Part shown: one piece after another, positions 13,493 to 29,685 of the stretch
Layout of the letters: the number at the start of each line of letters is the position of its first letter
Position numbering within the stretch: the first letter of the stretch is position 1
From: an uncultured Bacteroidales bacterium
GTDB lineage: Bacteria > Bacteroidota > Bacteroidia > Bacteroidales > CAYTAU01
Reading direction: 5' to 3'
NCBI GenBank assembly: GCA_964435855.1
Contig: CAYTAU010000008.1
Coordinates: forward strand, 2,096-66,095
Length of the DNA: 64,000 nucleotides
Translations under genes and position numbers: made by a program
Notes under the pieces: model-generated
The model's input: the letters and a program-made list of their open reading frames with translations, nothing else
Database searches by the model: none
Told to the model about the DNA's origin: nothing

Positions 13493-14785
13493 ATGACAAA
13501 AAAAGTATATGTAGGGATGAGTGCAGATATGATTCATCCCGGACATTTAAATATTATTAAGGAAGCAAGTAAATTAGGCAATGTTATTGTTGGAATACTT
13601 ACCGATAAAGCTATTGCTTCATATAAGCGCTTGCCTGCATTAAAATATGAACAACGAAAAATAATTATAGAAAATATAAAAGGTGTAACTGAGGTTATTC
13701 CGCAACATGAATTAGATTATACAGTTAATTTACGTAAAGTAAAGCCGGATTATGTTGTTCATGGAGACGATTGGAAAGAAGGTATTCAGAGAAGAGTGCG
13801 TCAAAAAGTTATTGACACACTTGCAGAGTGGGGAGGCAAACTACATGAAGTGCCATATACAAAAGGAATTTCTTCAACACAATTAAATCAAACACTAAAA
13901 GAAATTGGTACAACTCCTGAAATAAGAATGGGTAAATTACGTCGTTTAATTGATTCAAAACCAATTGTTAGAGTGATGGAGGCTCATAATGGTTTAACAG
14001 GATTAATTGTTGAGAATATCAATGTTAAAAAAGATGGCATGACAAAAGAATTTGATGCCATGTGGCTTAGTAGCCTCACTGATTCTACTGCCAAAGGTAA
14101 ACCAGACATTGAAGCAGTTGATGTTACTTCGCGCCTACATAGTCTTAACGACATTTTAGAAGTAACCACAAAACCTATTATATATGATGGTGATACAGGT
14201 GGAATTCCGGAACATTTTATATTTACTGTGAGAACTTTGGAACGTCTGGGAGTTTCTGCAATAATTATTGAGGATAAAACTGGTTTAAAGAAAAATTCTC
14301 TTTTTGGAACAGATGTTAAACAAACCCAAGATTCAATAGAAAATTTTTCTAATAAGATTAAAACAGGTAAGCAATCACAAATTACAGATAGTTTTATGAT
14401 AATAGCCAGAATAGAGAGTTTGATACTAAAGCAAGGAATGGATGATGCTATTAATAGAGCAAAAGCGTATATAGAAGCGGGGACTGATGGTATTATGATT
14501 CACAGTAAAGAAAAAGATGGAAATGAAATTCTTGAATTTTGCAAAAAGTTTAATGAATTTGATAGACGTGTCCCCTTAGTTGTTGTTCCTTCTAGTTATA
14601 ATCACATATACGAAAAGCAATTCATTGATGCAGGTGCTAATGTCGTAATTTATGCAAATCATTTGTTGAGGAGTGCTTACCCTGCAATGATTGATGTTGC
14701 AAAAATAATTTTAGAAAATGAACGTTCTTCTGAAGTTAATGATAAATGTATGTCAATTAAAGAAATACTAACTCTTATCCCATAG
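13493..14785 (+). CDS. pepM: bifunctional cytidylyltransferase-like domain / phosphoenolpyruvate mutase
   Basis: The N-terminal ~130 aa is TagD/ECT-like with a HIGH-type motif ([18 protein letters not shown]). The C-terminal PepM domain has DGDTGG and [13 protein letters not shown]. Confidence 0.9.
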
Positions 14786-14792
14786 ATAAATA

Positions 14793-15923
14793 ATGATTAG
14801 TCCTAATTTTTTTTATAATTACTTAACGAGTAAAAATATAGAGTTTTTTACAGGTATACCTGACTCATTATTAAAAGATATTTGTGCTTATATTACAGAT
14901 AACACTTCAAAGAAAAATCATATTATTGCGGCAAACGAAGGAAATGCAATTGCTATTGCAGCCGGATATCATATGGCAACAGATAAAATCCCTTTGGTTT
15001 ATATGCAAAATTCAGGAATAGGCAATGCTGTAAATCCGCTGCTGTCACTTACTGACTCGAACGCGTATAATATTCCGATTTTACTGATGATTGGTTGGCG
15101 AGGTGAACCTGGAACAAAAGATGAACCGCAACATGTTAAACAAGGCTTGGTTACAACTTCTTTGCTTGATGCGATGAAAATACCATATTTAATTTTAGAC
15201 CAAGACGAACAAAATGCCAAAGAACAAATAGATGAAGCAATAAATAAAATAAATAAAACAAATGTTGTTTTTGCTATTATTGTTAGAAAAGGAACTTTTG
15301 AAAAATATAGTATCAAGCAAAAAACAGATGCAAATTATACACTTTATCGCGAAGAGGCAATTAAAATAATTGTTGAGCAATTAGAAGGAAAAGAGTTAAT
15401 TGTTTCAACTACAGGAAAAACTTCTCGTGAGCTTTTTGAATGCAGAGAGGCATTAAATCAGCTACATAATGCTGATTTTTTGACCGTAGGTTCTATGGGA
15501 CATGCTAGTCAAATAGCATTAGGTATAGCATTAAGCAAACCTAATAGAAAAGTAATATGTATTGATGGTGATGGAGCTGTTTTAATGCACATGGGAGGGT
15601 TTGCAATTATAGGAACACAATCTCCAAAGAATTTTTTACATATAATTATAAATAATGGAGCACATGAATCTGTTGGTGGACAACCAACTGTAGCTTTTGG
15701 TATTGATATTCCATCTATTGCTAAAGCCAATAATTACAAATACGCCGTTAGAGTTTCAACATCAGATGAGCTTAAAGATGCTCTTGTAGAAATTGATAAA
15801 AACTTATTCCCGGCACTTATTGAAATAATGGTACGAACAGGTTCAAGAGATGATTTAGGTCGCCCTACTATTAAGCCGATAGATAACAAAATTAATTTTA
15901 TGAAAAATCTAGCATCAGAATGA
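14793..15923 (+). CDS. ppd: phosphonopyruvate decarboxylase
   Basis: 376 aa. ThDP motif GDGAVLMHMGG...NNGAHESVGGQ. Sits immediately after pepM. Confidence 0.88.
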   Translation: MISPNFFYNYLTSKNIEFFTGIPDSLLKDICAYITDNTSKKNHIIAANEGNAIAIAAGYHMATDKIPLVYMQNSGIGNAVNPLLSLTDSNAYNIPILLMIGWRGEPGTKDEPQHVKQGLVTTSLLDAMKIPYLILDQDEQNAKEQIDEAINKINKTNVVFAIIVRKGTFEKYSIKQKTDANYTLYREEAIKIIVEQLEGKELIVSTTGKTSRELFECREALNQLHNADFLTVGSMGHASQIALGIALSKPNRKVICIDGDGAVLMHMGGFAIIGTQSPKNFLHIIINNGAHESVGGQPTVAFGIDIPSIAKANNYKYAVRVSTSDELKDALVEIDKNLFPALIEIMVRTGSRDDLGRPTIKPIDNKINFMKNLASE

Positions 15924-17047
15924 GGCAAGAAGTATATAGAAATACGCAATTTTTAGATTTTAAGAAGTTTGTTAATAGGTATAATCCACAAAAAGTATTT
16001 TTGGTTGTGGATAAAAATTCATACGAGGTTTCCGGAGCAAGATTATTTATTGAAAAAATCTTTGGCGATGCTTTATCTGTCGCATTTTCTGATTTTAATC
16101 CCAATCCTCAATTGTCAGACTTAAAAAAAGGTATCTTTTTATTTCAAAAAGGTAAATATGAATTAATCTTGGCATTAGGAGGAGGGAGTGTTATTGATAT
16201 GGCTAAGCTGATTAGTGTAATGGTACATCAAGATCAGGATGTTAAAAAAATTGCAAAAAGAAGTGCTATTTTGAATAATAAAAAGACCCCATTGTTAACT
16301 ATTCCAACAACAGCCGGTACAGGTGCAGAAGCAACATCATTTGCAGTTCTTTATATTGATAAAGTCAAATATTCTGTTGCAAATGAATCAATATCTCCCA
16401 ATTATATTTTTTTGTCTCCCGAATTTTTAATGTCTGCACCTCCATATTTAACAGCTTGTACAGGTCTTGATGCATTTTGTCAAGCAATAGAATCTGTTTG
16501 GAGTATTAATTCCACAACAGAATCTAAAAAATATGCTCTTGAAGCAATTGATATAGTATGGAATAATCTGAAAATGGCAGTTGTTGATAATGACAAAAAA
16601 GCAAAGTCATTAATGCAAGAAGCTGCGTATTTAGCAGGTAAAGCAATAAATATCACAAAAACAACAGCGCCACATGCTTTGTCTTATGCTTTTACAAGTT
16701 ATTATAATATACCCCACGGGCATGCGGTAGCTTTGAGTTTGCCTTTTTTCTTTGAGTATAATTATGGGGTTTTAGATATTGACTGTAATGATACTCAAGG
16801 TGGAGATATTGTTAGAAATCGAATAAATGAGATCTTAAAAATAATGAATCTTAATATTGATAATGTGAACAATGAACTTACTTTATTCTTTGATTCAATA
16901 GGGATTAATATTAATATTATGACATTAATTAAGGATTTTAATCCAGATATAATTGTTAACAATATAAATCTTGAACGATTAAATAATAACCCAAGAAAAA
17001 TTAATAAAAAATCATTGATGAGTTTTTTAAATAACTGTAAATATTAG
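15920..17047 (+). CDS. iron-containing (group III) alcohol dehydrogenase, probable phosphonoacetaldehyde reductase
   Basis: GGGSVIDMAK and PHALSYAF..IPHGHAVAL metal-site histidines. ATGA overlap with ppd. The specific substrate is inferred from context. Confidence 0.7.
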   Translation: MRQEVYRNTQFLDFKKFVNRYNPQKVFLVVDKNSYEVSGARLFIEKIFGDALSVAFSDFNPNPQLSDLKKGIFLFQKGKYELILALGGGSVIDMAKLISVMVHQDQDVKKIAKRSAILNNKKTPLLTIPTTAGTGAEATSFAVLYIDKVKYSVANESISPNYIFLSPEFLMSAPPYLTACTGLDAFCQAIESVWSINSTTESKKYALEAIDIVWNNLKMAVVDNDKKAKSLMQEAAYLAGKAINITKTTAPHALSYAFTSYYNIPHGHAVALSLPFFFEYNYGVLDIDCNDTQGGDIVRNRINEILKIMNLNIDNVNNELTLFFDSIGININIMTLIKDFNPDIIVNNINLERLNNNPRKINKKSLMSFLNNCKY

Positions 17048-17068: not shown

Positions 17069-18307
17069 ATGACAAAAATACTTTTATATATAGACCCAGC
17101 GTCAACAAGTGCATTGCTTTATATTATAATTGCCATTGCAGCAACACTTGCCTTTGCCTTACGTGGTTTTTTCTATAGGATTAAAAATTTAATTTTTGGA
17201 AAAGGATTTATAAATACTAATGAATTTAATAATATTGATATTATTTTTTATTCTGAAGGGAAACAATATTGGCCTGTGTTTTATCCAATTATTAAAGCTT
17301 TGGAAAAGAAAAATATTGAATGTGCATATTTAACATCAGATGATAAAGATCCCGGCTTAGACTATAAATCAGAACTTCTTAAAACAAAATTTATAGGTAA
17401 TTTAACTATGACATCAGTTTATTTAAAAAAATTAAAAGCTAAATTTGTTGGAATGACTACACCACAACTTGATGTAATGATGATACAGCGATCAAAACAT
17501 ATACAACATTATGCTCATATAGTACATGCTCCTATTGATGTTTTTACATATCGTAAATTTGCTTTTGATTATTTTGATTCTGTTTTTTGTTCAGGACCAC
17601 ATCAAATAGAAGGAATTAAAAAACTAGAAGAGAAACGTGGAACAAATAAAAAACTTCTTTTAGAAACTGGACTTACATATTATGATGTAATGTTAGAGGA
17701 TATTAAAAAATTACCAAACCCAGATAAGCAAAGACCTGTTGTATTAGTTGCTCCAACATGGAAAGAGTACTCAATATTAAACAGATTTGGATTAAAGTTT
17801 TTTGAAAATCTTCTAAAAGATGAATCTTATGATGTTATTTTAAGACCTCACCCACAAACTTATGTGAGTTTCCCAAAATTAATTGCAGAAATTGAAGAAA
17901 AATATAAAGATGAACCACGATTTGTTGTTGACAGAGAACCATTAGGAACAGCAAGTATGTTGAAAGCTGACTTGATGATCAGCGATTTGTCAGGAGTGTT
18001 TTGGGATTTTATGTTTTTATATTCCAAACCTATCTTATTATTAAAAACGAACTTTGAATCTATAGAAGGTTTTGAAGGAAGTGAGTTAGACTATGAAATG
18101 TGGGAAATGAGAGAAAGAAGTAGGGTTGGGAGTATTTTTGATGAAGATGATTTAGAAAATATAAATAAAGTTGTGAAAGACTTATTAGAAACCCCTCCTC
18201 TTATGCAGTTAGAAGAGCTGAGAAAGCAGTCAGTATTTAATTTTGGGAGGGCTGGAGAAACAGCTGCTAAACAGATATTAGAGATAATAGAAGATATTGA
18301 CAAATAA
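17069..18307 (+). CDS. TagF/TagB-family CDP-alditol-type phosphotransferase homolog with N-terminal TM helix
   Basis: VVLVAPTWKE, ILRPHPQT, DLMISDLSGVFWDF, SKPILLL: the hallmark string of the CDP-glycerol glycerophosphotransferase family. Confidence 0.75.
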   Translation: MTKILLYIDPASTSALLYIIIAIAATLAFALRGFFYRIKNLIFGKGFINTNEFNNIDIIFYSEGKQYWPVFYPIIKALEKKNIECAYLTSDDKDPGLDYKSELLKTKFIGNLTMTSVYLKKLKAKFVGMTTPQLDVMMIQRSKHIQHYAHIVHAPIDVFTYRKFAFDYFDSVFCSGPHQIEGIKKLEEKRGTNKKLLLETGLTYYDVMLEDIKKLPNPDKQRPVVLVAPTWKEYSILNRFGLKFFENLLKDESYDVILRPHPQTYVSFPKLIAEIEEKYKDEPRFVVDREPLGTASMLKADLMISDLSGVFWDFMFLYSKPILLLKTNFESIEGFEGSELDYEMWEMRERSRVGSIFDEDDLENINKVVKDLLETPPLMQLEELRKQSVFNFGRAGETAAKQILEIIEDIDK

Positions 18308-18324: not shown

Positions 18325-21300
18325 ATGATTTTTTTCGAGCAAATAATATCACCATTTATTTTTATAATTAAGCAAATATTTTTGTTTAGTTATGAATTAA
18401 CCGGTGATTATGGTGTAGCTATTATTTTATTAAGTTTTGTAGTATCATTGATCTTATTGCCAATTTTTATTTTAATAGAAAAATCCAAAAAGAAAGATGA
18501 TGTTGTAAGGAAAAAAATGAAACCCTTAATTGATGAAATTAAGCGAGTTTATAAAGGGCAAGAACGTTATTATTATTTAAAAACAATAAATCGTCAGTAT
18601 AATTACAATTCTTTCAAGGCACTAATTCCAATTTTAAGTTTATTAATTCAGATACCATTTTTTATTGCAGCTTATCAGTTTTTAGAAAATTTTACAGAAC
18701 TAAAAGATGTAAGCTTTTTATTTATTAAAGACTTAAGTCTTCCCGATGGATTGTTTGGAGATATACATTTTTTACCAATCCTAATGACATTGGTAAATTT
18801 ATTAACAGCGTATTTATACACACGTAATGGCAATACATCTGAGCGCAAACAAATGTTAATAGTTGCAGGAGCTTTTTTGATTTTACTATTTAATCTTCCC
18901 TCAGGTTTAGTTCTTTATTGGACAATGAATAATGTTTTTAGCTTTTTTAGATTGTTTATTACAAATAAGGAAGTTTTTAAATCCAATTTATTAGGTTCAT
19001 CAAATTTTAATTTTGATTTTAAGGCTTCATATAAAAAACTCAAAATAATATTTATTGTTATTTTGGCACCTCTTTTATTCTCTCAGTTTTATTGGGCTTT
19101 TAATCATGATTTTAATGATATTTATATCCGCTTGCTGATGGCAATACTTATATCAGTTGGCTTAACCTTGTTAATCTGGCTAATAATAAATTTCTATAAA
19201 CATTACAAAACAACCATACTTGAAATAAAAGTAAAGCCAAGCTTGTTTTTTACTTTATTATTTTTAACTGTTTATTTTCATTTATCATCTCAGTTTTATT
19301 TTACAGGGGAAAATGCAACATTAAGTATAATTGCCTTATTAATGCTAATCCCTATTCAGTTTATTGGTTACATATATACGATTCGAACAAGATCAAAAAA
19401 AATTGCATATAAGTTTACAATTATTATTTATTTAGTTATTGTAGCTTATCAACTAGTTTCGTTAATATCCTATATTGCTGAAGATATTTTAATTAGTATT
19501 TTTAAAATAGAAATATTAATTGAATCAGGCTCATTCTCAGACATATTGGTGCCGGGTATTATTTTTTCCTTAATTTCATCAATTTATTATCTGCGACATA
19601 ATGGAACCCAGACAAATATAACAGCAAGAAAGAATTGGTTAATTTTTTCCCTTTCTATATTATATATCTTTGGGGTAATATTCTTTTGGCACCCCTTAAT
19701 TGTGTATTCTTCTTTTCCTGCAAATTTTGAATTTCCGGCATATAAATTTTTTAGCAATAATTTAATTCCATTTATAATAAGTATTTTCTCCAGTATTTTG
19801 CTTTATAAAATACTCTCAAAAAAATATAGAATAAATATGCTTCAAGTATTTTTATGGCTTGTTATTATTGTTCTATTGTATAGCTCAATTATTCCATTCG
19901 ATGTTGGTACATTACAAGTAAATTTTTTCTCAAAAGAAAATAATTTGGCTGCTGAAACATACAAATATTTATTTGAAGCTATTTTGTTAATAGGTATTTA
20001 TATTATAGTAATTAGGGTGTTAAAACGAAAGTATTTTAAACAAATTACTTTTGTATTAATTGTTTTGAACCTGTTTATTATTAGTCAAAGCTTATATTTA
20101 TCAGTAAAAACAGGTGTATTTTTTTCTAAGGGAAATGATAACATTAAAGCTAAAGAAATTCAGTTTTCAAAAAATAATGAAAACATAATATTCTTTATTA
20201 TAGATGGAGCACAGGGTTGGTATATGCGAGATATTTTTATTGAAAACCCCAAACTAAATGATTTATATGATGGTTTTGTTTGGTATCCAAATACAATTTC
20301 AACATCAAATTATACATATTCTTCTGTTCCCGGTATGATGTGTGGAAATGATTTCTCTATTGAAAATATGAATAAAGATGAGGATAAAACCATAACTCAA
20401 AAAGTAACTAATGCCACTGCTAAATTCTATAGTAAAATTAAAGATAAGGGCTATTATTTTACAGGAAATCACCTTTCATACTCAAACTTAGATACAAAAC
20501 AAATTGACAATTTTCTCCCAAAATGGGAAAATAGTTGGTCAGAAGTAATAGGTCTGATTAATAGAGGTGAAATGTGGTATTCTCGTCTTTGGGAAAATGC
20601 ACTTTTTTCTTCTTCACCACTTTTTTTAAAACCAAGAATTTATAATCACAATAAATGGTTTGAAATAAGGAAAAATGAACAAAAAGAAATTACAACTACA
20701 GAACTCTTAGGCAAATATAGTTTTATTACAATTTTACCTAAAATCTCAAGCAACAAAAGTAATAATTCTAATTTTATTTATATTCATTCAATGTTTGCAC
20801 ATGCCCCTTGGGATTTAATTACAGAAGGTAACAAACTAATTAGTGATGTAAGCCCTTATGAAAATCAAAAACAATTTATTGAGTTTTTTGCAAAATGGCT
20901 AACTTGGATGAAAGAAAATGAAGTTTATGATAATACCAAAATAATTCTTGTGTCAGATCATGGACCATCTTGGTGGCATTATGACAAAAAAATAGAAGAC
21001 CATAACATACCTATAGTTTGGTCTAAAGATAATAAGGTTGTATTAGTGGAGTTTCTTAGATTAAACCCTGTTTTGATGGTAAAGGACTTTAATTCAAAAG
21101 GAAAAGTGAAAGAAGATTGGAGAATAATGAGCAATATTGATACTTATGCAATTGCATTTGATGAAAATGATCCAACAAAAAATAATCTTCCATCAAGAAC
21201 AGTTTATACATACTATACAAAATGGCACACAGATTTAAAAACTAGAAAAAAATACCAAAATAACCTTGCATTTCAGATCAAGGATAATGTATATGATATT

Positions 21301-21711
21301 AATAATTGGAAAAAAATTTCAACGTCAAATGATGCTGTGTCATATATGGAAAAAAATTCTTCTATAAGTATCTATGACAGTACTAATTTAGATGTAATTT
21401 TTTTAAATAAACAACGAACTATAATAATTTCAAGGATTAAAAATAGTTATGATTGGCTTGAAAATGTGAAAAGCCAAGCTAAAAAAAGAGAAATAACTTT
21501 AGATTCGATGTTAATATTATCAGCAAATTATGTTATAGAAACTGCAGAATCAGGATGCATAAAAGAAAGAGCAGTACTCATTCATAAAATAAAAAATGAT
21601 GAAGAGTGGTTAAACTCCATTATTGAAGATGCTAAAGTGAAAAATATTCAAATCGATTCAATGATATTGAAAAATGTTAATCACATTTTATATACCAGGC
21701 AAAATAAATGA
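18325..21711 (+). CDS. fusion protein: YidC/Oxa1-like module + polytopic region + LtaS/EptA-like sulfatase-fold domain + 2 C-terminal W/KAK repeats
   Basis: N-terminus has YGVAIILLSFVVSLILLP, MKPLIDEIKRVY, LLIQIPFFIAAY, FLFIKDLSLPD and PSGLVLYWTMNNVFSF. The extracytoplasmic domain has IFFIIDGAQGWY and ILVSDHGPSW. Confidence 0.7.
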   Translation: MIFFEQIISPFIFIIKQIFLFSYELTGDYGVAIILLSFVVSLILLPIFILIEKSKKKDDVVRKKMKPLIDEIKRVYKGQERYYYLKTINRQYNYNSFKALIPILSLLIQIPFFIAAYQFLENFTELKDVSFLFIKDLSLPDGLFGDIHFLPILMTLVNLLTAYLYTRNGNTSERKQMLIVAGAFLILLFNLPSGLVLYWTMNNVFSFFRLFITNKEVFKSNLLGSSNFNFDFKASYKKLKIIFIVILAPLLFSQFYWAFNHDFNDIYIRLLMAILISVGLTLLIWLIINFYKHYKTTILEIKVKPSLFFTLLFLTVYFHLSSQFYFTGENATLSIIALLMLIPIQFIGYIYTIRTRSKKIAYKFTIIIYLVIVAYQLVSLISYIAEDILISIFKIEILIESGSFSDILVPGIIFSLISSIYYLRHNGTQTNITARKNWLIFSLSILYIFGVIFFWHPLIVYSSFPANFEFPAYKFFSNNLIPFIISIFSSILLYKILSKKYRINMLQVFLWLVIIVLLYSSIIPFDVGTLQVNFFSKENNLAAETYKYLFEAILLIGIYIIVIRVLKRKYFKQITFVLIVLNLFIISQSLYLSVKTGVFFSKGNDNIKAKEIQFSKNNENIIFFIIDGAQGWYMRDIFIENPKLNDLYDGFVWYPNTISTSNYTYSSVPGMMCGNDFSIENMNKDEDKTITQKVTNATAKFYSKIKDKGYYFTGNHLSYSNLDTKQIDNFLPKWENSWSEVIGLINRGEMWYSRLWENALFSSSPLFLKPRIYNHNKWFEIRKNEQKEITTTELLGKYSFITILPKISSNKSNNSNFIYIHSMFAHAPWDLITEGNKLISDVSPYENQKQFIEFFAKWLTWMKENEVYDNTKIILVSDHGPSWWHYDKKIEDHNIPIVWSKDNKVVLVEFLRLNPVLMVKDFNSKGKVKEDWRIMSNIDTYAIAFDENDPTKNNLPSRTVYTYYTKWHTDLKTRKKYQNNLAFQIKDNVYDINNWKKISTSNDAVSYMEKNSSISIYDSTNLDVIFLNKQRTIIISRIKNSYDWLENVKSQAKKREITLDSMLILSANYVIETAESGCIKERAVLIHKIKNDEEWLNSIIEDAKVKNIQIDSMILKNVNHILYTRQNK

Positions 21712-24700
21712 ATTTTTTCGAGCAAATTATATCACCATTTATTTTTATAATTAAGCAAATCTTTTTGTTTAGTTCTGAATTAACCGGTAATTATGGTGTA
21801 GCTATTATTTTATTAAGTTTTGTAGTATCATTGATCTTATTGCCAATTTTTATTTTAATAGAAAAATCCAAAAAGAAAGATGATGTTGTAAGGAAAAAAA
21901 TGAAACCCTTAATTGATGAAATTAAGCGAGTTTATAAAGGGCAAGAACGTTATTATTATTTAAAAACAATAAATCGTCAGTATAATTACAATTCTTTCAA
22001 GGCACTAATTCCAATTTTAAGTTTATTAATTCAGATACCATTTTTTATTGCAGCTTATCAGTTTTTAGAAAATTTTACAGAACTAAAAGATGTAAGCTTT
22101 TTATTTATTAAAGACTTAAGTCTTCCCGATGGATTGTTTGGAGATATACATTTTTTACCAATCCTAATGACATTGGTAAATTTATTAACAGCGTATTTAT
22201 ACACACGTAATGGCAATACATCTGAGCGCAAACAAATGTTAATAGTTGCAGGAGCTTTTTTGATTTTACTATTTAATCTTCCCTCAGGTTTAGTTCTTTA
22301 TTGGACAATGAATAATGTTTTTAGCTTTTTTAGATTGTTTATTACAAATAAGGAAGTTTTTAAAGCCAATTTATTCGGTTCATCAAATTTTAATTTTGAT
22401 TTTAAGTCTTCATATAAAAAACTCAGAATAATATTTATTGTTATTTTGGCACCTCTTTTATTTTCTCAGCTCTATTGGGCTTTTAATCATGACTTTAATG
22501 ATATCTATATCCGCTTACTGGTGACAGTACCTATATCAGTTGGTTTAACTTTTTTTGTATGGCTAATAATAAATATATACCGTCATTACAAACAAGCTTT
22601 ATATAATATACAAGTAAAACCGAACTTGTTTTTCACTTTATTATTTTTAACTGTTTACTTTCATTTATCATCTCAGTTTTATTTTACAGGAGAAAATGCA
22701 ACACTAAGTATAATTGCCTTATTAATGCTAATACCTATTCAGTTTATTGGTTACATATATACAATTCGAACAAAATCAAAAAAAATTGCATATAAGTTTA
22801 CAATTATTATTTACTCCCTTATTGTAGCATATCAACTAATTACAATAACTTCTTATTTTGCAGAAGATATATCATTTAGTGTGGCAAAAATTAACATATT
22901 TATTAAACCCGGTTCATTTTCAGATGTATTAGTATCCGGTATTATTTTTTCTTTAATTGCATCAATATACTTTTTTCGTTCTTCTAAAATTAAATTTGAA
23001 AACAATAATAGATCAAACTATTTTATCTACACATTGTCAATAATTTTTATTTTTGGATTAATATTTTTCTGGAAACCATTATTAGTATACTCTTCTTCTC
23101 CTGATACATTTAGTTTCCCGGCTGGGCATATTTTTAAATATAATTACAAACTTTTTTTAATATGGTTTAGTATTTTAGTGCTAGCCTACATTTTGTTGCC
23201 AAAAAAATACAAAAAGATCTTGTTATACCTAAGTCTAATATATGTAGTTATTAGCTTTATATATAGCTTAATAATTCCTATTCAACTTGGATCATTACAA
23301 GTTTCAAAGTTTTCTGAACAGAAAAATCTTGAAGCACCTATAATGCATTACTTATTAGAAGCTATATTATTAATATGTATATTTTTTGCAGTTAACTGGG
23401 TTTATAAAAAAAAGTACTACAAAGTTACTGCTATAGTTTTGATTGTTTTCAACTTTTTATTGATAGGTCAAAGTATTTTTAGTGCATATAAAACAGGATA
23501 TTTTTATAGATCAGTTTACGAAGAAAAAATAAACACAAAAGATATTCCTTTTTCAAAAGATCAACAAAATATTGTTTATTTTCTTGCAGATGGATTTCAG
23601 GGATGGTATATAAAAAGAATAATGGAAGAAGAATCTGAGTTAAAAGATGTGTTTTCCGGTTTTACATGGTTTCCTAATACTTTATCAGAATCTAACTATA
23701 CACATTCTTCTGTAAATTCACTCTTTATAGGAAAAAAAGGTTCTGTAATTCAGATGAATGCTGATACAATACATACAATTAAAGAAAAAATTAATTACGC
23801 AGCTCTAGCTTTTATAAAAAAAATAAGAGAAAAAGGATATACTTATTCCAGTACTTATATGCATTATTCAGGTGTAGAGGCAAGCGAATTTGACAACTAT
23901 ATACCTTTTTGGAACGATGTATGGAATAAATGGTCTATTGATGTACCACTTGGGAATAAGATTGATGTTTGGAAAAAACGACTTTATGAAAATGCACTAT
24001 TTTATAGCCTGCCATTATTCCTAAAGCCTAAAATATATAATAAAACAGAGTGGCTACAATATTATTTTCCTAATCTAGAAGGAAAAAAACAAGATGGATA
24101 TAAATACTCTTATGAGCCGTATAATTTTATTAGACTATTGCCATATATATCTGTAATAGATTCGGGAATACCTAATTTTGTTTATATACACGATCATTCG
24201 TTGCATAACCCATGGAACACAGTAAATGACTTAGGGGAAATGAAAAACGATGTTCATCCTTATGAAGTTAGTATATGGTTCATTCAACGTTTTGCACGTT
24301 GGATAAAATGGATGAAGGATAATGATGTATATGATAATACAAAAATTGTAATAGTTTCAGATCACGGAGTATCTTGGTCTGCATTTGATGGTGAAGTAGA
24401 CATAAAATCATCGGTAAATTGGGAAAATAACCCTAGTAAAATATCCAAAATTTTATTTTGGAGACTTAACGCACTTTTAATGGTAAAGGATTTTAATGCA
24501 ACAGGACCTCTTAAAGAAGATTGGCGTATTATGACAAATGCTGATGCCCCTGAATTAATTTTTAATTTTAAAGAATTTATTGATAATGATTCAATAAACA
24601 GAATATTAAATTCATACTATACTAAATGGGAGGGGGAAATGACAAGTAAAATAATAATAAATATTCCAAAACAATATGAAGTAGAAAATGATATTTATGA

Positions 24701-24737
24701 TTTGAATAACTGGAAAGAAATTAAAGAAGTGAAATGA
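21708..24737 (+). CDS. paralog of 18325..21711 (YidC-like + polytopic + sulfatase-fold domain, no C-terminal repeats)
   Basis: First ~219 aa almost identical to the upstream paralog. VYFLADGFQGWY and VIVSDHGVSW. ATGA overlaps at both ends. Confidence 0.7.
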   Translation: MNFFEQIISPFIFIIKQIFLFSSELTGNYGVAIILLSFVVSLILLPIFILIEKSKKKDDVVRKKMKPLIDEIKRVYKGQERYYYLKTINRQYNYNSFKALIPILSLLIQIPFFIAAYQFLENFTELKDVSFLFIKDLSLPDGLFGDIHFLPILMTLVNLLTAYLYTRNGNTSERKQMLIVAGAFLILLFNLPSGLVLYWTMNNVFSFFRLFITNKEVFKANLFGSSNFNFDFKSSYKKLRIIFIVILAPLLFSQLYWAFNHDFNDIYIRLLVTVPISVGLTFFVWLIINIYRHYKQALYNIQVKPNLFFTLLFLTVYFHLSSQFYFTGENATLSIIALLMLIPIQFIGYIYTIRTKSKKIAYKFTIIIYSLIVAYQLITITSYFAEDISFSVAKINIFIKPGSFSDVLVSGIIFSLIASIYFFRSSKIKFENNNRSNYFIYTLSIIFIFGLIFFWKPLLVYSSSPDTFSFPAGHIFKYNYKLFLIWFSILVLAYILLPKKYKKILLYLSLIYVVISFIYSLIIPIQLGSLQVSKFSEQKNLEAPIMHYLLEAILLICIFFAVNWVYKKKYYKVTAIVLIVFNFLLIGQSIFSAYKTGYFYRSVYEEKINTKDIPFSKDQQNIVYFLADGFQGWYIKRIMEEESELKDVFSGFTWFPNTLSESNYTHSSVNSLFIGKKGSVIQMNADTIHTIKEKINYAALAFIKKIREKGYTYSSTYMHYSGVEASEFDNYIPFWNDVWNKWSIDVPLGNKIDVWKKRLYENALFYSLPLFLKPKIYNKTEWLQYYFPNLEGKKQDGYKYSYEPYNFIRLLPYISVIDSGIPNFVYIHDHSLHNPWNTVNDLGEMKNDVHPYEVSIWFIQRFARWIKWMKDNDVYDNTKIVIVSDHGVSWSAFDGEVDIKSSVNWENNPSKISKILFWRLNALLMVKDFNATGPLKEDWRIMTNADAPELIFNFKEFIDNDSINRILNSYYTKWEGEMTSKIIINIPKQYEVENDIYDLNNWKEIKEVK

Positions 24738-26644
24738 GGATAATATTAATTATTATTATTATTACAGTAATTGCTTTTAGTTGTAATAAGCCTAAATCTG
24801 CTCGTGATATTTTTAAATATAATCATGAAGAAGAGATATTTTTAGATTATACAAACAGTTATAATGAGGGATTTAATATTCCTGGTAATAATTCTTTTTT
24901 TGAAATAAAATTTATTTCAGAGGATTTTATTGGAAAATACTATAAAATATACTATCAGAATGAAAGTTATAAATTTGATGATACATTAAATTTATCTAAT
25001 GAGAACTTTTATGGTAGTTGGTCCGATACAAATATTGAGTTTGAAAATTTTTCAGAGGATACTACAATTATTAAATTTCAGATTCAGGGGAATCCAAGAA
25101 ATGAAGAAAAGTACTATCAAGATAATAGGGTTTATTTATCAGAAAATAAAATTCAGAAAACAGCAGAATCAATTTTAACTGATAAAAAATGGTCAAATGA
25201 TATTTTAGAAAAATCAAAATTGAATAATGTATCTTTCGAAAAACAACTTTATATTGATACAGAATGGCTTTTGCTTGATAAACAAAAGAGCAAAAGAACT
25301 AATAATAGATGGCAACGTAATCCTAGGCTTGGAGTTTATAGTTTGTTAATCGTAATAGTAGATCCAGAACAATTAGCAAAAACACCAAAATATATTGCTA
25401 ACATTAGTTTGAAAAATTCAGAATCTCATTTTGTTAATCCATATAAATATTTTGCCGATAATGAAGATAATAGCAAGGGCTTGGTGTATAAAATTGATAG
25501 GATAATAAAAGTAAAAGCTAAACCTCCTGTCAATAAAGGGATATATGTTAATTGTAAATTAAGAGACATAGATACAGCATATTATAATAAATATGTAAAT
25601 AGCAGTTTAAAGCTAAATAATAATGCAGCATTTGCTTATTTCCCAAATAAACGTTCCATTGATAAACCTATCCAAAATTTACCGGTGAGCTCAAAGTTAT
25701 TATCAGGTGAATACAGTTTAGAAGATTATAAAAAAAATATTGATGAGTTTGATGAACAAAGACTTGAAATTTTCTTTAAAAACTCAAAAGCTCCCGGTAA
25801 AACTTTTGGCGTTAATGAAAAAAACAATTCAATATGGTTTAAAAACCCTGCAAATAAAGAAGGAGAGTATTTAAAAGAAAATATTGGTATTCAAACCAGA
25901 AATGGTTTTACATATGGTAAATATACATTTAAAATAAAAATGGCAGAACTTCTAAATAAGCATAATGTATGGACCGGTTTAACAAATGCATTATGGCTTA
26001 TGGCTGAATCTGATGCAGAATGGAACAAGCGTAGAATATGCAATAAAGGTGGTTTTTTACCATATTATGGAGCACCAAAGACTGAGAAGAGAATTCCTGC
26101 TGTTTCATATTCTGAAATTGATTTTGAGATAATTAAAGCTCCAGAGAATTGGCCAATAACATCTTATAAAGATAAAACTTGTAGAAAGGAAGATCCTGCA
26201 TCTCATGTTGACAAAGTTATGATTGCATGTACAAATTTTGATTTAGCATGCCAACAGCCAAATAGCTTTAATAACGGTGTAGAAAAAATTAGATATAAAA
26301 AAGATACTTTTAATATTCATAGATGGAATACATGGTATCATGCGCTAACATCAAAAGTCCCTATTGCTGATGATGAATTATTTCAAAATGAGTTTTATTA
26401 TTTTCAAATAGAATGGAAACCAACAGAAATTATTTGGCGTATTGGAAAAGATAAAAAAAATCTTAAGGTAGTAGGATATATGAACGACAAAGTAACCAGT
26501 ATCCCTAATAATCAAATGGTTTGTATTATTACCCAAGAGTATCACCACTCTCATTGGTGGCCGGAATCTCCTTTTGAACAGGAAAATGTACCTTTTACAT
26601 TAGAAGATTTAAAAGGGGTTTTATATGAAATTGAAATTGAATAG
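24734..26644 (+). CDS. lipoprotein with C-terminal GH16/ConA-like glucanase-fold domain and one W/KAK repeat
   Basis: Lipobox VIAFSC. YGKYTFKIKMAE...ALWLMAE, SEIDFEI (ExDxE) and YYFQIEWKPTEIIWRIG. Confidence 0.65.
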   Translation: MRIILIIIIITVIAFSCNKPKSARDIFKYNHEEEIFLDYTNSYNEGFNIPGNNSFFEIKFISEDFIGKYYKIYYQNESYKFDDTLNLSNENFYGSWSDTNIEFENFSEDTTIIKFQIQGNPRNEEKYYQDNRVYLSENKIQKTAESILTDKKWSNDILEKSKLNNVSFEKQLYIDTEWLLLDKQKSKRTNNRWQRNPRLGVYSLLIVIVDPEQLAKTPKYIANISLKNSESHFVNPYKYFADNEDNSKGLVYKIDRIIKVKAKPPVNKGIYVNCKLRDIDTAYYNKYVNSSLKLNNNAAFAYFPNKRSIDKPIQNLPVSSKLLSGEYSLEDYKKNIDEFDEQRLEIFFKNSKAPGKTFGVNEKNNSIWFKNPANKEGEYLKENIGIQTRNGFTYGKYTFKIKMAELLNKHNVWTGLTNALWLMAESDAEWNKRRICNKGGFLPYYGAPKTEKRIPAVSYSEIDFEIIKAPENWPITSYKDKTCRKEDPASHVDKVMIACTNFDLACQQPNSFNNGVEKIRYKKDTFNIHRWNTWYHALTSKVPIADDELFQNEFYYFQIEWKPTEIIWRIGKDKKNLKVVGYMNDKVTSIPNNQMVCIITQEYHHSHWWPESPFEQENVPFTLEDLKGVLYEIEIE

Positions 26645-26646
26645 AT

Positions 26647-28077
26647 ATGGTTTTTAGCAGTATCTTTTTTCTACTATATTTTTTACCGGTATTCTTAATA
26701 ATTTACCATATTATTCCTCATAAGTATAGAAATTGGTGGATATTAATATCAAGCATTCTCTTCTATTCATGGGGGGCTCCAAAATTTGTATTTGTAGTAG
26801 TTGCTTCTGTTATTATTGACTATTACATTATAAATGAAATGCATAAAATGAATAATGATAAAAACCGAAAATGGATGCTTGCTTTATCAATATCCATAAA
26901 TATTGGTTTATTATTGTTTTTTAAATATGCTAACTTTTTTGTTGAGAATGTTAATTCAGTTCTTCAAGGTATTGGATTCGAACAAGTAGGTTGGACATCA
27001 ATTGCATTACCAATAGGTATTTCATTTTATACATTTCAAACTTTAACATATTCAATTGATGTTTATAGAAAAGTTCACAAACCATTAAAAAGCCCTTTTC
27101 AATATTTGGTTTATATAATGCTTTTTCCTCAGATGATTGCGGGACCTATTGTACGCTTTAACCAAATAGCCGAACAAATTGAAGACAGAAAAAACCTTGA
27201 AACTATTGATAATAAGCTGCTTGGATTTTTCAGGTTTGCAATAGGTTTAGCAAAAAAAGTACTAATTGCTAATGTAATGGGGGCAGAAGCAGATAGAATA
27301 TTTGCGCTTAGTGAGGGAAACTTAGGCTTTTATCAAGCTTGGTTAGGTGTTTTAGCTTATACTTTCCAAATCTATTATGATTTTTCAGGTTATTCTGATA
27401 TGGCTATTGGTTTGGGCAGGATAATGGGCTTTAAATTTCCTGAAAATTTTAATAATCCATATATTTCTCAGAGTATTAGTGAATTCTGGAGAAGGTGGCA
27501 TATTACACTTGGTAGCTGGATGCGTGATTATTTATATATTCCACTCGGCGGTAGTAGGGTAAAATCAAAAAGAAGACTGTTTTTTAATCTTTGGCTGATA
27601 TTCATAATTTCAGGTTTATGGCATGGAGCTGCGTGGAACTTTATTATTTGGGGAGCTTACCATGGAATTTTTCTAATTTTTGATAGATTATTTTGGCTTA
27701 AGATTGTAGACAAAATTGGCAAATATCCAAGTATTTTTATAACATTCTTTATTACAATTATTGGATGGGTTCTTTTCAGAGCAGAAAGCTTATTTCAAAT
27801 AAAATACTATTTAAAGGCAATGTTTAGCTTTAAAACTATAGAGTTTGACTTTTATATTACTAATGAATTTTGGACATTATTTATTATTGCATTTATATTT
27901 GCATTTATTACTATTTCTAAATTAGGGCTTAAAATTGAGAACTTTGTATTCTTCAAAAAAAAATATAGTATTGGTCAAACACTATTTATGTCTTTTATAG
28001 TATTTTTATTATTAATTCTTTCTATTGCTAATATAGTTTCTTCTGATTTTAACCCTTTTATCTATTTTAGATTTTAA
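26647..28077 (+). CDS. MBOAT family O-acyltransferase (AlgI/DltB-like)
   Basis: FWRRWHITLGSWMRDYLYIPLGG and GLWHGAAWNF (conserved His). Polytopic. Confidence 0.9.
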   Translation: MVFSSIFFLLYFLPVFLIIYHIIPHKYRNWWILISSILFYSWGAPKFVFVVVASVIIDYYIINEMHKMNNDKNRKWMLALSISINIGLLLFFKYANFFVENVNSVLQGIGFEQVGWTSIALPIGISFYTFQTLTYSIDVYRKVHKPLKSPFQYLVYIMLFPQMIAGPIVRFNQIAEQIEDRKNLETIDNKLLGFFRFAIGLAKKVLIANVMGAEADRIFALSEGNLGFYQAWLGVLAYTFQIYYDFSGYSDMAIGLGRIMGFKFPENFNNPYISQSISEFWRRWHITLGSWMRDYLYIPLGGSRVKSKRRLFFNLWLIFIISGLWHGAAWNFIIWGAYHGIFLIFDRLFWLKIVDKIGKYPSIFITFFITIIGWVLFRAESLFQIKYYLKAMFSFKTIEFDFYITNEFWTLFIIAFIFAFITISKLGLKIENFVFFKKKYSIGQTLFMSFIVFLLLILSIANIVSSDFNPFIYFRF

Positions 28078-28089
28078 AATAACAAATTT

Positions 28090-29685
28090 ATGAATAAACA
28101 TATAAAAAAAGTAATACTCCTGTTTTTTATTATTATTCTTATGGTCCCGGCAATTGAAAGACACCTGAGTTTTTTTAACTTCACACAACTTAATGGTGCA
28201 TACACAAATACATCCAGAATTGACCTAAATGTTACAAACTTTCTTGATGATTCCTATCAAATTGCTTTAGAGAAAAATTTGACTGATAGTATAGGATTTA
28301 AAAGTATTCTTGTTCGCGTATATAATCAAATAGCTTATTCATTATTTAATATTTCACATGCAAATAAAGTTGTTGTTGGAACTGATGATGTTTTATATGA
28401 AGACTACTACATTAACTCATATTATGGCAAAGATTATATTGGTCATGATAAAATTAATGAAAAAGTAGAAAAGTTTTCAAAACTTCAACAATTATTATAT
28501 TCTAAAGGAATTCATTTGCTTTTAGCCATAACACCAAGTAAAGCATCCATATATCCAAATAATTTTCCTAAGCATTTGAAGTCTGAAAAAGGTACAACAA
28601 ATTATGAAAAAACAATTGAACTCCTTAACAAATATGATTGCAAATATATAGACTTAAAAAATATATTTTTAGAATTAGATAAAACAACTGAATATACTCT
28701 ATTTCCGAAGCAGGGAATTCACTGGAGTGGCTATGGAATTACAAAAGCTGCAGATACACTATTTAAGTATTTATCAAATAAAACTGGCATCATTTTTAAC
28801 AATATAATTATAAAAGAAGGAGAATTAACAAATATATATCAAGGTTCAGATAATGACATTGGCGATGCATTAAATCTATTATTTAAACCTGTAATTGATA
28901 AATTATATTATCCTGAAATTATTTTTTATAATGATAAAAATAATACTAAACCGGGTGTGCTAATTATTGGAGATAGCTTCTCTAATGGATTTTGGAAATT
29001 TTATCCATACTTTCAAAATTTATTTAATGAAGAAAGTCAGTTTTGGTATTATAATCAGGAAATTATTTGGCCACAAAATAATTTAAATACAAAAGTCGAG
29101 TCATTAGATCTGTATGAAGAGATACTTAAAAGAAAAATTATTTTAGTTATTAGTTCAGAACAAAATCTCGATAATTTGGGCTACTTCTTTTTTGATAAAA
29201 CATTAGAAATATTTAATAATAAAAATAAGTTTATTAAAAATAAAATAAATCACTATACTTCAAAAATTAAAACAGATAAAAATTGGCTAAACAGTATTAA
29301 GGAAAAAGCTAAAATGAACAATATTTCAGAAGATGAAATGATTAATATTGATGTAAAATGGCTTTGCGAACAAGATATTATTAGATACTATACAGATTCT
29401 ATTAATAATGATTCTGTGTGGAAATCTAATATAATTAGAAAATCTGTTGAAAAGCAAATGTCTTTAGATTCTATAATCTTTTTGGATGCTAAATATTTAT
29501 TTAAAATAAATTATGAAGATCTTTTAAATAATAGTAATACAGATAAATTAGTATTAAAAACAATTGAAAAAATAAAGGCAGATATAGATTGGTATAATGA
29601 TATTAAACAAAAAGCAAAGAAAAACAATATTACTGTTGAGGAACAGCTTCGCATTGATGCTGAATGGGTTGTTGAGAATATGTAG
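28090..29685 (+). CDS. AlgJ/AlgX/DltD-like SGNH-type partner of the MBOAT, with three C-terminal W/KAK repeats
   Basis: N-terminal anchor helix. KQGIHWSGYG (DxHW-like) and LIIGDSFSNGF. Position directly after the MBOAT. Repeats lie at 29242-29682. Confidence 0.55.
   Translation: MNKHIKKVILLFFIIILMVPAIERHLSFFNFTQLNGAYTNTSRIDLNVTNFLDDSYQIALEKNLTDSIGFKSILVRVYNQIAYSLFNISHANKVVVGTDDVLYEDYYINSYYGKDYIGHDKINEKVEKFSKLQQLLYSKGIHLLLAITPSKASIYPNNFPKHLKSEKGTTNYEKTIELLNKYDCKYIDLKNIFLELDKTTEYTLFPKQGIHWSGYGITKAADTLFKYLSNKTGIIFNNIIIKEGELTNIYQGSDNDIGDALNLLFKPVIDKLYYPEIIFYNDKNNTKPGVLIIGDSFSNGFWKFYPYFQNLFNEESQFWYYNQEIIWPQNNLNTKVESLDLYEEILKRKIILVISSEQNLDNLGYFFFDKTLEIFNNKNKFIKNKINHYTSKIKTDKNWLNSIKEKAKMNNISEDEMINIDVKWLCEQDIIRYYTDSINNDSVWKSNIIRKSVEKQMSLDSIIFLDAKYLFKINYEDLLNNSNTDKLVLKTIEKIKADIDWYNDIKQKAKKNNITVEEQLRIDAEWVVENM

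Follow-up and report, generated by a model that had tools for sequence, protein, structure and literature searches.

The 64,000-nucleotide stretch of DNA analyzed here (the window), which comes from an uncultured Bacteroidales bacterium (GenBank assembly GCA_964435855.1, contig CAYTAU010000008.1, positions 2,096 to 66,095), carries on its + strand at 13493-29685 an operon of nine genes (ORF1 to ORF9) that joins predicted phosphonate synthesis to enzymes of the cell envelope. We propose that this operon encodes a phosphonyl-tailoring pathway, which would place 2-hydroxyethylphosphonate (HEP) on an extracytoplasmic glycoconjugate, and we put the probability of this reading at roughly one half. 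Its core is a conserved pair, namely a TagF-like transferase (ORF4) and giant proteins (here ORF5 and ORF6) in which a YidC-like domain is fused to a domain of the alkaline-phosphatase (AP) fold; judging from their sequences, this pair is a so far undescribed candidate for the machinery of phosphonyl transfer. The route by which cytidylyl-activated phosphonates reach the cell surface is an acknowledged gap, the later steps of phosphonate tailoring having been said to 'remain enigmatic' (Rice et al. 2019), and this locus, together with hundreds alike, nominates a two-protein answer to it.

The putative YidC-fused and TagF-like transferases

ORF5 (18325..21711, + strand like the rest of the operon; 1128 amino acids (aa)) is a fusion of four parts, comprising an N-terminal YidC-like domain (residues 1-225, 18325-18999; PF02096, 1.9e-27), a middle region that adds about 11 more helices (residues 226-600, 19000-20124), an AP-fold domain resembling those of EptA, MCR-1, LtaS and PbgA (residues 601-1005, 20125-21339; recognized by Foldseek and by the Pfam Sulfatase model at 3e-6) and a helical tail with two copies of a 32-aa motif (residues 1024-1127, 21394-21705). 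Its paralogue ORF6 (21708..24737; 1009 aa) lacks the motif-bearing tail and is 97.8% identical to ORF5 in the YidC-like domain and 41% identical in the catalytic domain. The YidC-like domain of both proteins scores 100 bits against TIGR03592 (cutoff 84), displays the core of five transmembrane (TM) helices and the cytoplasmic hairpin of the YidC/Oxa1 fold and, in ORF5, superimposes on the YidC of B. halodurans (PDB 3wo7) with a TM-score of 0.71 and a root-mean-square deviation of 3.2 Å. The groove arginine of the insertases (R366 in E. coli, R72 in B. halodurans) is not retained, as it aligns with S41 of ORF5.

The remainder of the fusion follows the plan of EptA, MCR-1, LtaS and BcsG, in which a TM bundle precedes an AP-fold domain with a threonine and Asp/His residues of metal-binding type. 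An AF2 model of ORF5 (pLDDT 79.8, pTM 0.55), compared with known folds by Foldseek, recovered YejM/PbgA (4.6e-7), MCR-1 (6e-7), EptA (2e-6), LtaS (1.5e-5) and BcsG (4e-5), the matches to MCR-1 and EptA being full-length; sulfatases were returned as well. Across 29 members of the fusion family S41 is invariant, as are D627, T664, H826, D878 and H879 of the AP-fold domain. The Pfam Sulfatase match is weak and was seen in ORF5 only, not in ORF6, and neither protein contains the CxPxR motif (C/S-x-P-x-R) of sulfatases, the candidate nucleophile being surrounded by T664-Y-S-S-V-P-G; a true sulfatase function was rejected on this ground. An earlier note on this DNA had described the two proteins as 'sulfatase-fold' giants: the AP-type fold stands, and the sulfatase part of the name does not, since the residue signature, as read from sequence and model, is that of phospho-head-group transferases rather than sulfatases. 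The PGAP and IMG annotations label fusions of 1000-1230 aa 'membrane protein insertase YidC' (e.g. P0022, P0030, P0077), a misleading name that reveals neither the enzyme domain nor the absence of the groove arginine.

The YidC-like domain, cytoplasmic hairpin included, is the most conserved part of the fusion and holds about 95 of its invariant columns; the hairpin, at residues 52-95 of ORF5, hardly varies. Neither this conservation nor the missing groove arginine had been noticed in the earlier note. Within a genome, paralogues share 73-100% of their residues in this domain, the middle TM region reaching 24-64% and the catalytic domain 31-47%, a pattern of constancy in the one and diversity in the other that fits a constant cytoplasmic partner or substrate combined with diversified acceptors outside. 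At the DNA level, the first ~750 nucleotides (nt) of ORF5 and ORF6 (18325-19075 versus 21708-22458) are 97-100% identical, 450 nt of them without a break, and the identity falls to about 55-65% beyond ~1200 nt. The pattern resembles the outcome of gene conversion, or of a partial duplication that is very recent; the resulting direct repeat, with its spacing of 3.4 kb, could mediate deletion.

The partner of the fusions, ORF4 (17069..18307; 412 aa), is a TagF-like (CDP-alcohol type) phospho(no)transferase that matches Glyphos_transf (PF04464) at 41.8 bits (cutoff 22.1). A search of the PDB with the single sequence gave nothing useful, and it took a profile of 27 orthologues to recover Cps3D (8qoy, 1.7e-11), TarL (8va1, 1e-6) and TagF (3l7m, 1.9e-5). 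In all 27, Treponema included, H153, D170, the stretch R259-P-H261-P-Q263, D306 and S308 are invariant, and the PF04464 match, the homology to TagF, TarL and Cps3D and the two histidines H153 and H261 place ORF4 within the TagF family. It possesses a single N-terminal hydrophobic helix, which is followed by a positively charged stretch, and its catalytic domain should therefore face the cytoplasm. As its donor we propose CMP-2-hydroxyethylphosphonate (CMP-HEP), the predicted product of the three genes that precede it.

Predicted synthesis of a cytidylyl-activated phosphonate

ORF1 (13493..14785; 430 aa) is a bifunctional protein that combines a cytidylyltransferase with a phosphoenolpyruvate (PEP) mutase (PepM, also Ppm). 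Its N-terminal domain (residues 1-138, 13493-13906; PF01467, 2e-14) bears at residue 15 an HPGH motif of the HxGH type found in cytidylyltransferases and, over residues 5-138, matches PDB entry 5x3d at 4.8e-58 (200 bits), which we take to be the cytidylyltransferase domain of Fom1 (label and length agree). The PEP mutase domain (residues 146-430, 13928-14782; PF13714, 9e-54) scores 418 bits against TIGR02320 (cutoff 320), matches PDB 1m1b at 2e-40 and carries at residue 260 the motif EDKxxxxxNS, which separates Ppm from its isocitrate-lyase relatives. ORF1 is hence both a PEP mutase and a PF01467-Ppm fusion of the Fom1 type; such fusions make up 23.6% of Ppm proteins, and their exemplar Fom1 makes CMP-HEP (PMC6697681).

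The next gene, ORF2 (14793..15923; 376 aa), encodes a phosphonopyruvate decarboxylase (Ppd), scoring 505 bits against TIGR03297 (cutoff 312) and matching both TPP_enzyme_N (PF02776) and TPP_enzyme_C (PF02775). It overlaps by 4 nt with ORF3 (15920..17047; 375 aa), which suggests translational coupling of Ppd with this group III iron alcohol dehydrogenase (Fe-ADH, 1.7e-33; ADH_Fe_C, 9e-25). The best NCBIfam match of ORF3 is the phosphonate-associated Fe-ADH family TIGR03405; because the score of 165 bits is below the cutoff of 424, the call of its substrate rests on gene context. Fe-ADHs of the PhpC-like kind convert phosphonoacetaldehyde to HEP (PMC8942020), and ORF3 is a probable phosphonoacetaldehyde reductase resembling PhpC and FomC, which would yield HEP. 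Taken together, ORF1 to ORF3, comparable to Fom1, Fom2 and FomC, should make CMP-HEP.

Conservation and modularity of the locus

The YidC-fusion family comprises 1701 matches at E<1e-5, and 471 fusion loci were confirmed in species-representative genomes. The neighborhood counts given here and below come from a comparison of the window's proteins with the ORFs of 82 loci (designated L001 and so on); of the 471 or more fusion loci, 78 were covered. The window's gene order recurs in L001, in Draconibacterium (L003, L010, L012) and in dozens of metagenome-assembled genomes (MAGs) of Bacteroidales, far more often than chance would allow; D. halophilum (CP048409.1, at about 4.70-4.73 Mb) has this order with three fusions. 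Conservation of the order in relatives was the test to which the earlier note had committed itself beforehand. PepM, Ppd, Fe-ADH and the TagF-like gene follow one another as in the window in all 18 Bacteroidota-type loci with at least 5.2 kb of upstream sequence, the Fe-ADH coming directly after Ppd in each, and the TagF-like gene adjoins a fusion in 24 of 24 Bacteroidota-type loci. The tie that the note had drawn between phosphonate genes and TagF-like and EptA/LtaS-fold enzymes is borne out by these counts. Intact fusion genes number one to three per Bacteroidota-type locus, with possibly four in L033.

The genes downstream of the fusions are optional. The trio of GH16-like, MBOAT and AlgX-type genes, represented in the window by ORF7, ORF8 and ORF9, is present in six of the 19 loci with enough downstream sequence, the trio-bearing loci including L001, L003 (Draconibacterium halophilum), L010, L012 and L021; Lentimicrobium has the five-gene core alone. 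Homologues of ORF7 (more than 1368, all from Bacteroidota and all named 'hypothetical') also occur away from phosphonate genes in MAGs of Flavobacteriales and Bacteroidia, where they adjoin MBOAT/AlgX genes (L084), a small family 2 glycosyltransferase (GT2) and a multi-TM protein of ~600 aa. From these neighborhoods we read the operon as the join of a HEP module (ORF1-6) with part of a glycan module (ORF7-9 and a divergently transcribed pair of genes for a GT2 and a GT-C-like protein). The earlier view of the nine genes as one system needs this correction: the operon is genuine and is a composite of two modules, the trio being optional and found also without phosphonate genes.

Spirochaete and Lachnospiraceae relatives

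Members of the fusion family are also encoded by Spirochaetes, Treponema among them, one cultured carrier being T. putidum ATCC 700334. Of the 23 Spirochaete loci, 16 retain the TagF-like partner and the other seven have a fusion with no TagF-like gene nearby; PepM is found in some only. In the Spirochaete loci with PepM and Ppd, the next gene encodes a ~614-aa fusion of NTP_transf_3 with a class-V aminotransferase. This is also how Tde1415 is built, the T. denticola PntC-AEPT that was shown to make CMP-2-aminoethylphosphonate (CMP-AEP); the paper describing it leaves the transfer step open and makes no mention of YidC, insertase or sulfatase (PMC6697681). As the TagF-like/YidC-fusion pair flanks the Treponema AEP cluster, it is a candidate for this missing step of phosphonyl transfer.

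In other loci, the pair is found beside a fusion of a nucleotidyltransferase with a class-I/II aminotransferase and beside glycosyltransferases. Two loci of Lachnospiraceae and Treponema without pepM (L053:6889-8691, L072:13925-15748) illustrate this: the pair adjoins a ~600-aa protein with a LicC/PntC-type nucleotidyltransferase domain and a class-I/II aminotransferase (or decarboxylase-like) domain, which suggests a different cytidylyl-activated head group. Given that it adjoins pathways for HEP, AEP and others with such fusions, the pair behaves as a general module for cytidylyl-activated head groups, with HEP as its predicted cargo in Bacteroidota. Its retention from Bacteroidales to oral and gut Treponema, next to HEP, AEP and probably other head-group pathways, is what lends the pair an interest beyond this operon.

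The glycan module

ORF7 (24734..26644; 636 aa) is a lipoprotein (lipobox Cys17) with one copy of the 32-aa motif in its N-terminal half (residues 152-183, 25187-25282) and a GH16-fold domain thereafter (~residues 340-636, 25751-26641; E461-x-D463-x-E465). It has no match above cutoff in Pfam or NCBIfam (Pfam GH16, 10.8 bits versus 22), and against the PDB its single sequence gave nothing useful and its profile nothing, so that the fold call needed a predicted structure. In the AF2 model (pLDDT 89.4, pTM 0.86) a beta-jelly-roll is combined with the GH16 motif E-x-D-x(x)-E, which reads E461-I-D463-F-E465 in ORF7, and the best 50 Foldseek matches are all GH16 enzymes (top 1.4e-8). Thirty homologues all retain C17, E461, D463 and E465, and eight of them show a weak Pfam GH16 match. 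By sequence and model, ORF7 would be a very divergent member of GH16 or represent a sister family.

ORF8 (26647..28077; 476 aa) is a membrane O-acyltransferase of the MBOAT family, similar to AlgI, PatA and DltB (PF03062, 6.8e-33, 114.8 bits against a cutoff of 27), with H285 and H326, the latter within W-H-G, invariant in 16 orthologues as expected of MBOAT enzymes. Its best NCBIfam match is DltB (TIGR04091); at 172 bits against a cutoff of 375 the score is too low for ORF8 to be a DltB equivalog. ORF9 (28090..29685; 531 aa) is a membrane-anchored SGNH-like protein of the AlgX/AlgJ type (ALGX, PF16822, 1.7e-14, 54.6 bits against a cutoff of 26.5), in which H211 and D295-S296, retained by all 10 orthologues compared, conform to the AlgX/AlgJ pattern, the catalytic Asp being assigned tentatively; its C-terminal tail (residues 399-531, 29284-29682) holds three copies of the 32-aa motif. 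The two proteins reproduce the two-component layout of AlgI with AlgJ/AlgX, PatA/PatB, WssH/WssI and DltB/DltD, by which extracytoplasmic polymers are acylated, and ORF9 differs from those partners in its novel triple helical motif. Dlt-type D-alanylation was rejected, as the operon has no DltA/DltC-like ORF and ORF8 falls under the DltB cutoff; without that carrier pair, acetylation of a glycan is the more likely activity of ORF8 and ORF9. With ORF7 placed by its structure model and the others by profile-HMM annotation, all nine enzyme-family calls of the earlier note hold.

The helical motif (W..I..KAK.nNIs.d.m..DA.W) occurs twice in the tail of ORF5, once in ORF7 and three times in the tail of ORF9 and nowhere else in the window; it matched no Pfam family, and it recurs in the orthologues of L001, L003, L010, L012, L013, L015, L021 and L031. 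Because ORF5, ORF7 and ORF9 share it, the join of the HEP and glycan modules looks functional and not just positional.

Two genes on the - strand upstream of the operon may complete the glycan module. The nearer (12312..13025; 237 aa) encodes a small, divergently transcribed GT2 of the size of DPM1/GtrB-type enzymes (PF00535, 5.6e-32), which is 38% (L084) and 35% (L085) identical to small GT2s adjoining ORF7 homologues and is probably part of the module. The farther (10532..12295; 587 aa) encodes a multi-TM protein with at least eight hydrophobic segments, whose C-terminal domain is FRG1/fascin-like (beta-trefoil-type). In L084 the GH16-like gene has as its neighbor a 617-aa protein with 47% identity to it (E 1.7e-121); the corresponding neighbor in L083 is 32% identical, and a homologue follows the GH16-like gene in L015. 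Its family, very large and unannotated, comprises 6707 cluster representatives; four of 25 members match PMT_2 weakly (best 2e-6), and D37 in the first loop is invariant. A profile search against PDB sequences gave no match, and we tentatively regard the protein as a GT-C-like glycosyltransferase. Since the ORF7-9 trio is optional and is also found without phosphonate genes, it would most likely trim and O-acylate a glycan, not a phosphonate polymer.

A proposed mechanism and its alternatives

The enzyme families, conserved residues, gene linkage and modularity are established above; from them we infer, for the following scheme, which donor and acceptors are used, the passage through a carrier lipid, the part that the YidC-like domain plays in flipping, and the topology. 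The PEP mutase part of ORF1, ORF2 and ORF3 would convert PEP via phosphonopyruvate and phosphonoacetaldehyde to HEP, which the Fom1-like N-terminal domain of ORF1 would activate with CTP to CMP-HEP; the family evidence backing this part, from PEP to CMP-HEP, is strong. The membrane-tethered ORF4, facing the cytoplasm, would then move the HEP-phosphonyl group from CMP-HEP to a hydroxyl of a membrane-bound carrier, which may be a lipid or a lipid-linked glycan. ORF5 and ORF6 would take over this carrier: the groove of their YidC-like domain, bereft of the insertase arginine, would carry the charged head group through the inner membrane in the manner of a scramblase, and their periplasmic EptA/LtaS-like domain would, by means of Thr664 and the metal site, hand HEP to hydroxyls of acceptors outside, by analogy with EptA, BcsG, OpgB, GacH and LtaS, which use head groups from phosphatidylethanolamine (PE) or phosphatidylglycerol (PG). 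With catalytic domains that have diverged, ORF5 and ORF6 may differ in the acceptors or the steps that they serve. In vitro, the YidC of E. coli is a scramblase of glycerophospholipids (PMC11047089), a recent finding on lipid scrambling by insertases on which such a repurposing of YidC would bear, and membrane-anchored members of the AP superfamily move phospholipid head groups onto diverse acceptors, according to a preprint (bioRxiv 10.64898/2026.09.23.753746). Lastly, ORF7-9, together with the upstream GT2 and GT-C-like proteins, would process the acceptor glycan of HEP, by cleavage or transglycosylation and by O-acylation, with the 32-aa motif co-localizing ORF5, ORF7 and ORF9 at one place or substrate. 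If this is true, the YidC/Oxa1 fold would have been built into a small-molecule or lipid pathway instead of protein insertion, of which we know of no earlier case. A bolder version, which we hold to be rather improbable, has the YidC-like domain, once a protein insertase, serve as a dedicated flippase or scramblase for a phosphonate-headed carrier lipid made by the TagF-like enzyme, so as to supply the fused LtaS/EptA-like domain directly, and lets the Bacteroidota paralogues polymerize HEP head to tail outside the inner membrane, to give a poly-phosphonate 'phosphono-lipoteichoic acid' on a diderm that ORF7-9 would process.

Several points weigh against the tailoring scheme. The global pTM of the ORF5 model is modest (0.55), the equivalence of T664 with the nucleophile position of EptA and LtaS is putative, and a sequence search of the PDB with the catalytic domain gave only a non-significant match to MCR-2 (E 0.34). 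The fold closest to that of ORF5 belongs to PbgA/YejM, a protein often held to lack catalytic activity, and the YidC-like domain could simply aid insertion or assembly. On the side of ORF4, TagF-family structures align to the C-terminal half only (~residues 187-408), and TagF-type enzymes normally modify lipid-linked glycans directly, separate transporters exporting these, so that no second transfer step would be needed. ORF3, for its part, lies far under the cutoff of the sole phosphonate-specific Fe-ADH model (165 versus 424 bits), and the link of the GT2/GT-C-like pair to the operon is loose because L001 lacks that upstream pair.

Taking the usual behavior of TagF-type enzymes at face value, ORF4 might decorate an undecaprenyl-linked glycan directly in the cytoplasm, with the flippase or transporter encoded elsewhere; the fusions would then not be HEP transferases but hydrolases or remodeling enzymes, or would, in the manner of PbgA, sense or chaperone the modified envelope. 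That TagF/TagB-type enzymes act on lipid-linked glycans at the cytoplasmic face is established knowledge, and the rank of PbgA/YejM among the fold matches, the seven of 23 Spirochaete loci with a fusion and no nearby TagF-like gene and a Wzx/MurJ-like gene near the cluster in L044 all point the same way. We nevertheless deem it unlikely, if deserving of a serious hearing: the invariance of D627, T664, H826, D878 and H879 argues for catalysis, the fusion adjoins the TagF-like gene in every one of the 24 Bacteroidota loci, the five-gene core often stands alone without a transporter, and the extreme conservation of the YidC-like domain would go unexplained. The end product could instead be a membrane phosphonolipid, ORF4 making a HEP-headed lipid that ORF5 and ORF6 distribute or remodel between leaflets or membranes; the membrane anchor of ORF4 and the capacity of the YidC fold to scramble lipids suit this, and Selenomonas pepM clusters with multiple 'sulfatases' have been assigned to the phosphonolipid group (PMC8942020). 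The conserved periplasmic catalytic domain, diverse among paralogues, speaks instead for onward transfer to several acceptors, and a glycan as the target is suggested by the motif that ORF5 has in common with the presumed glycan enzymes ORF7 and ORF9. Known routes to phosphonolipids use enzymes of the CDP-alcohol-phosphatidyltransferase type, not TagF-like ones. We consider this outcome decidedly improbable.

The earlier note had seen in the operon a 'full set' of teichoic-acid machinery making an anionic polymer. In its strongest form this would be a true teichoic-acid analogue: HEP, with its free hydroxyl, would be joined head to tail into poly(HEP), made in the cytoplasm by ORF4 or outside by ORF5 and ORF6 as primase and polymerase in the manner of LtaP and LtaS, and esterified in Dlt-like fashion by ORF8 and ORF9. 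The best structural relatives of ORF4 are indeed the polymerases Cps3D, TarL and TagF, LtaS is among the fold matches of ORF5, the presence of two to four diverged paralogues in a locus is reminiscent of how LtaP and LtaS divide their labor, the best NCBIfam match of ORF8 is DltB and the nine genes are tightly packed as one operon. The set is, however, far from full: neither a wall-teichoic-acid primer enzyme (TagO/TagA/TagB) nor a TagGH exporter nor an LCP ligase was found by Pfam and NCBIfam in the nine ORFs or the flanking genes, and the operon has no ABC or other polymer exporter and no DltA/DltC. ORF8 lies far under the DltB cutoff, and the trio, optional (6/19) and existing without phosphonate genes, cannot be dedicated to a phosphonate polymer. 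Moreover, the Treponema pair works beside AEP, which has no hydroxyl and so cannot polymerize, and no poly-phosphonate was found in the literature searched, nor do we know of a report of one. We therefore doubt that the product is poly(HEP); decoration with single units, in the style of EptA, BcsG, OpgB and GacH, fits at least as well as an anionic polymer. What endures of the note's proposal is its more general part, an extracytoplasmic product bearing C-P bonds, which is the most likely outcome.

The correspondence of ORF1-3 to Fom1, Fom2 and FomC might also suggest a diffusible phosphonate natural product, such as a fosfomycin-like or other antibiotic, made from CMP-HEP. This we judge to be very improbable, as the operon has no gene for a radical-SAM methyltransferase, epoxidase, hydrolase, ATP-grasp enzyme, nonribosomal peptide synthetase, export or resistance, and all its other genes specify membrane or periplasmic envelope enzymes. 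A fosfomycin-like or methylphosphonate product in particular was rejected because the tailoring genes are absent: Pfam and NCBIfam detected no Fom3, HppE, MpnS or HEPD-like gene among the nine ORFs, all of which are accounted for.

Relationship to characterized systems

The early fosfomycin pathway of Streptomyces has in common with the operon its three-enzyme logic, the PF01467-Ppm fusion and the predicted product CMP-HEP. It further possesses Fom3, Fom4 and FomD, which are absent here, and CMP-HEP, a transient intermediate in that pathway, would in the window be a transfer donor. In the use of a cytidylyl-activated phosphonate for surface decoration the operon is closer to the Pnt clusters of Treponema denticola (Tde1415 PntC-AEPT) and Bacteroides fragilis (polysaccharide B, PS B, with AEP), and Treponema relatives of the Tde1415 cluster carry the same TagF-like/YidC-fusion pair as the window. 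The Pnt clusters differ in the head group, AEP made by a transaminase as opposed to HEP made by the Fe-ADH, and in the activating domain, which is LicC-type as opposed to PF01467-type. The PepM-Ppd-FeADH core is shared with the producers of HEP-phosphonoglycans, Glycomyces and Stackebrandtia, which are Gram-positive actinomycetes; in these two organisms HEP is reported to be esterified to an exopolysaccharide (Yu et al. 2014, as cited in PMC13576164, PMC8942020). Neighborhoods of pepM of the HEP type are 8.5% of all, and only two of their ten families have a known product (PMC8942020).

With EptA/MCR-1, LtaS, BcsG, OpgB, GacH and PbgA/YejM the fusions share the fold, the placement of a C-terminal periplasmic domain after a TM bundle, the threonine with its Asp/His metal site and the 'VSDHG' motif, and LtaS too occurs as sets of paralogues. 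Whereas EptA/LtaS-type enzymes draw on bulk PE and PG, the fusions of the window are coupled to a dedicated pathway of donor synthesis, and they add an N-terminal YidC-like domain and ~6 extra helices. To our knowledge, no such YidC-like addition to this family has been described. Compared with the YidC/Oxa1 insertases, from which they retain the five-helix core and cytoplasmic hairpin, the fusions have an invariant serine in place of the groove arginine, are joined to an enzyme and occur in one to four copies per locus. As to the TagF family, which includes the Gram-negative capsule polymerase Cps3D (8qoy), it is the C-terminal Rossmann half of ORF4 that shows homology (1.7e-11), and teichoic-acid-like polymers of diderms are already known from TagF-like capsules. 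ORF4 differs from the TagF polymerases in being short and single-domain (412 aa), in its N-terminal TM helix and in its expected donor, a CMP-phosphonate and not a CDP-alditol; it is likened to them by homology, and a polymerase activity is at most putative.

In the literature searched, no paper connected pepM or HEP with YidC fusions, TagF-like enzymes or EptA/LtaS-type enzymes, a limit being that supplementary figures may show the neighborhood. The relevant enzyme families are not mentioned in the marine phosphonate study of Acker et al. 2022. Esters of HEP, of which Bacteroidota could be one source, are a major part of the organic phosphorus dissolved in seawater.

Operon structure and genomic surroundings

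The nine + strand ORFs between 13493 and 29685 have exactly the coordinates that the earlier note gave them, and its short gaps and three overlaps were reproduced. From ORF1 to ORF9 the successive gaps are 7, -4, 21, 17, -4, -4, 2 and 12 nt, the 4-nt overlaps lying at 15920, 21708 and 24734. No terminator-like hairpin lies at any junction of the operon in a scan of 12000-31500, where three terminator-like sites, all within coding sequence, compare with 5.7 in shuffled sequences. The layout is that of a genuine nine-gene operon, and a single transcript for all nine genes is likely. A 467-nt AT-rich spacer (13026..13492, + strand), a probable promoter region, separates ORF1 from the divergent genes. 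Since the genes upstream of ORF1 in the close relative L001 differ from those of the window, we place the 5' boundary of the block at this spacer. It contains a match to TAnnTTTG, TACTTTTG at 13469-13476, 17 nt ahead of the ATG of ORF1; the window has 116 such matches versus ~127 expected, that is, no enrichment, which makes this evidence of a promoter weak and positional. A scan for sigma-70 promoters was uninformative in the AT-rich window (153 sites versus 141 expected), and no Rfam family was found in the window, hence no riboswitch or leader RNA that would explain regulation. At the 3' side, the end of ORF9 is 22 nt from a convergent gene.

The junction of ORF6 and ORF7, a 4-nt overlap in the window, is by called start a gap of ~140 nt in L001 (L001:13384-16548), which is 89-94% identical; either the start calls differ or the junction varies. 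Convergent with the operon, the - strand of 29708-33496 encodes a PKD/SprB-repeat protein with a C-terminal sorting domain of the type IX secretion system, a 584-aa protein with a weak match to outer-membrane beta-barrels and a sigma factor of the extracytoplasmic function type; the PKD/SprB-repeat and 584-aa genes are also kept downstream in L001. The sorting domain and the taxonomic affiliation of every close homologue agree with an origin of this DNA in Bacteroidota. Some 5 kb downstream of the operon, a pyruvate phosphate dikinase is encoded at 34982-37702 on the - strand; its product, PEP, is the substrate of PepM, and lying on the opposite strand the gene is probably unrelated to the operon. 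On the other side, at 2152-8346 on the - strand, the window encodes a 2064-aa bacterial alpha-2-macroglobulin-like protein with MG2, A2M and bMG10 domains.

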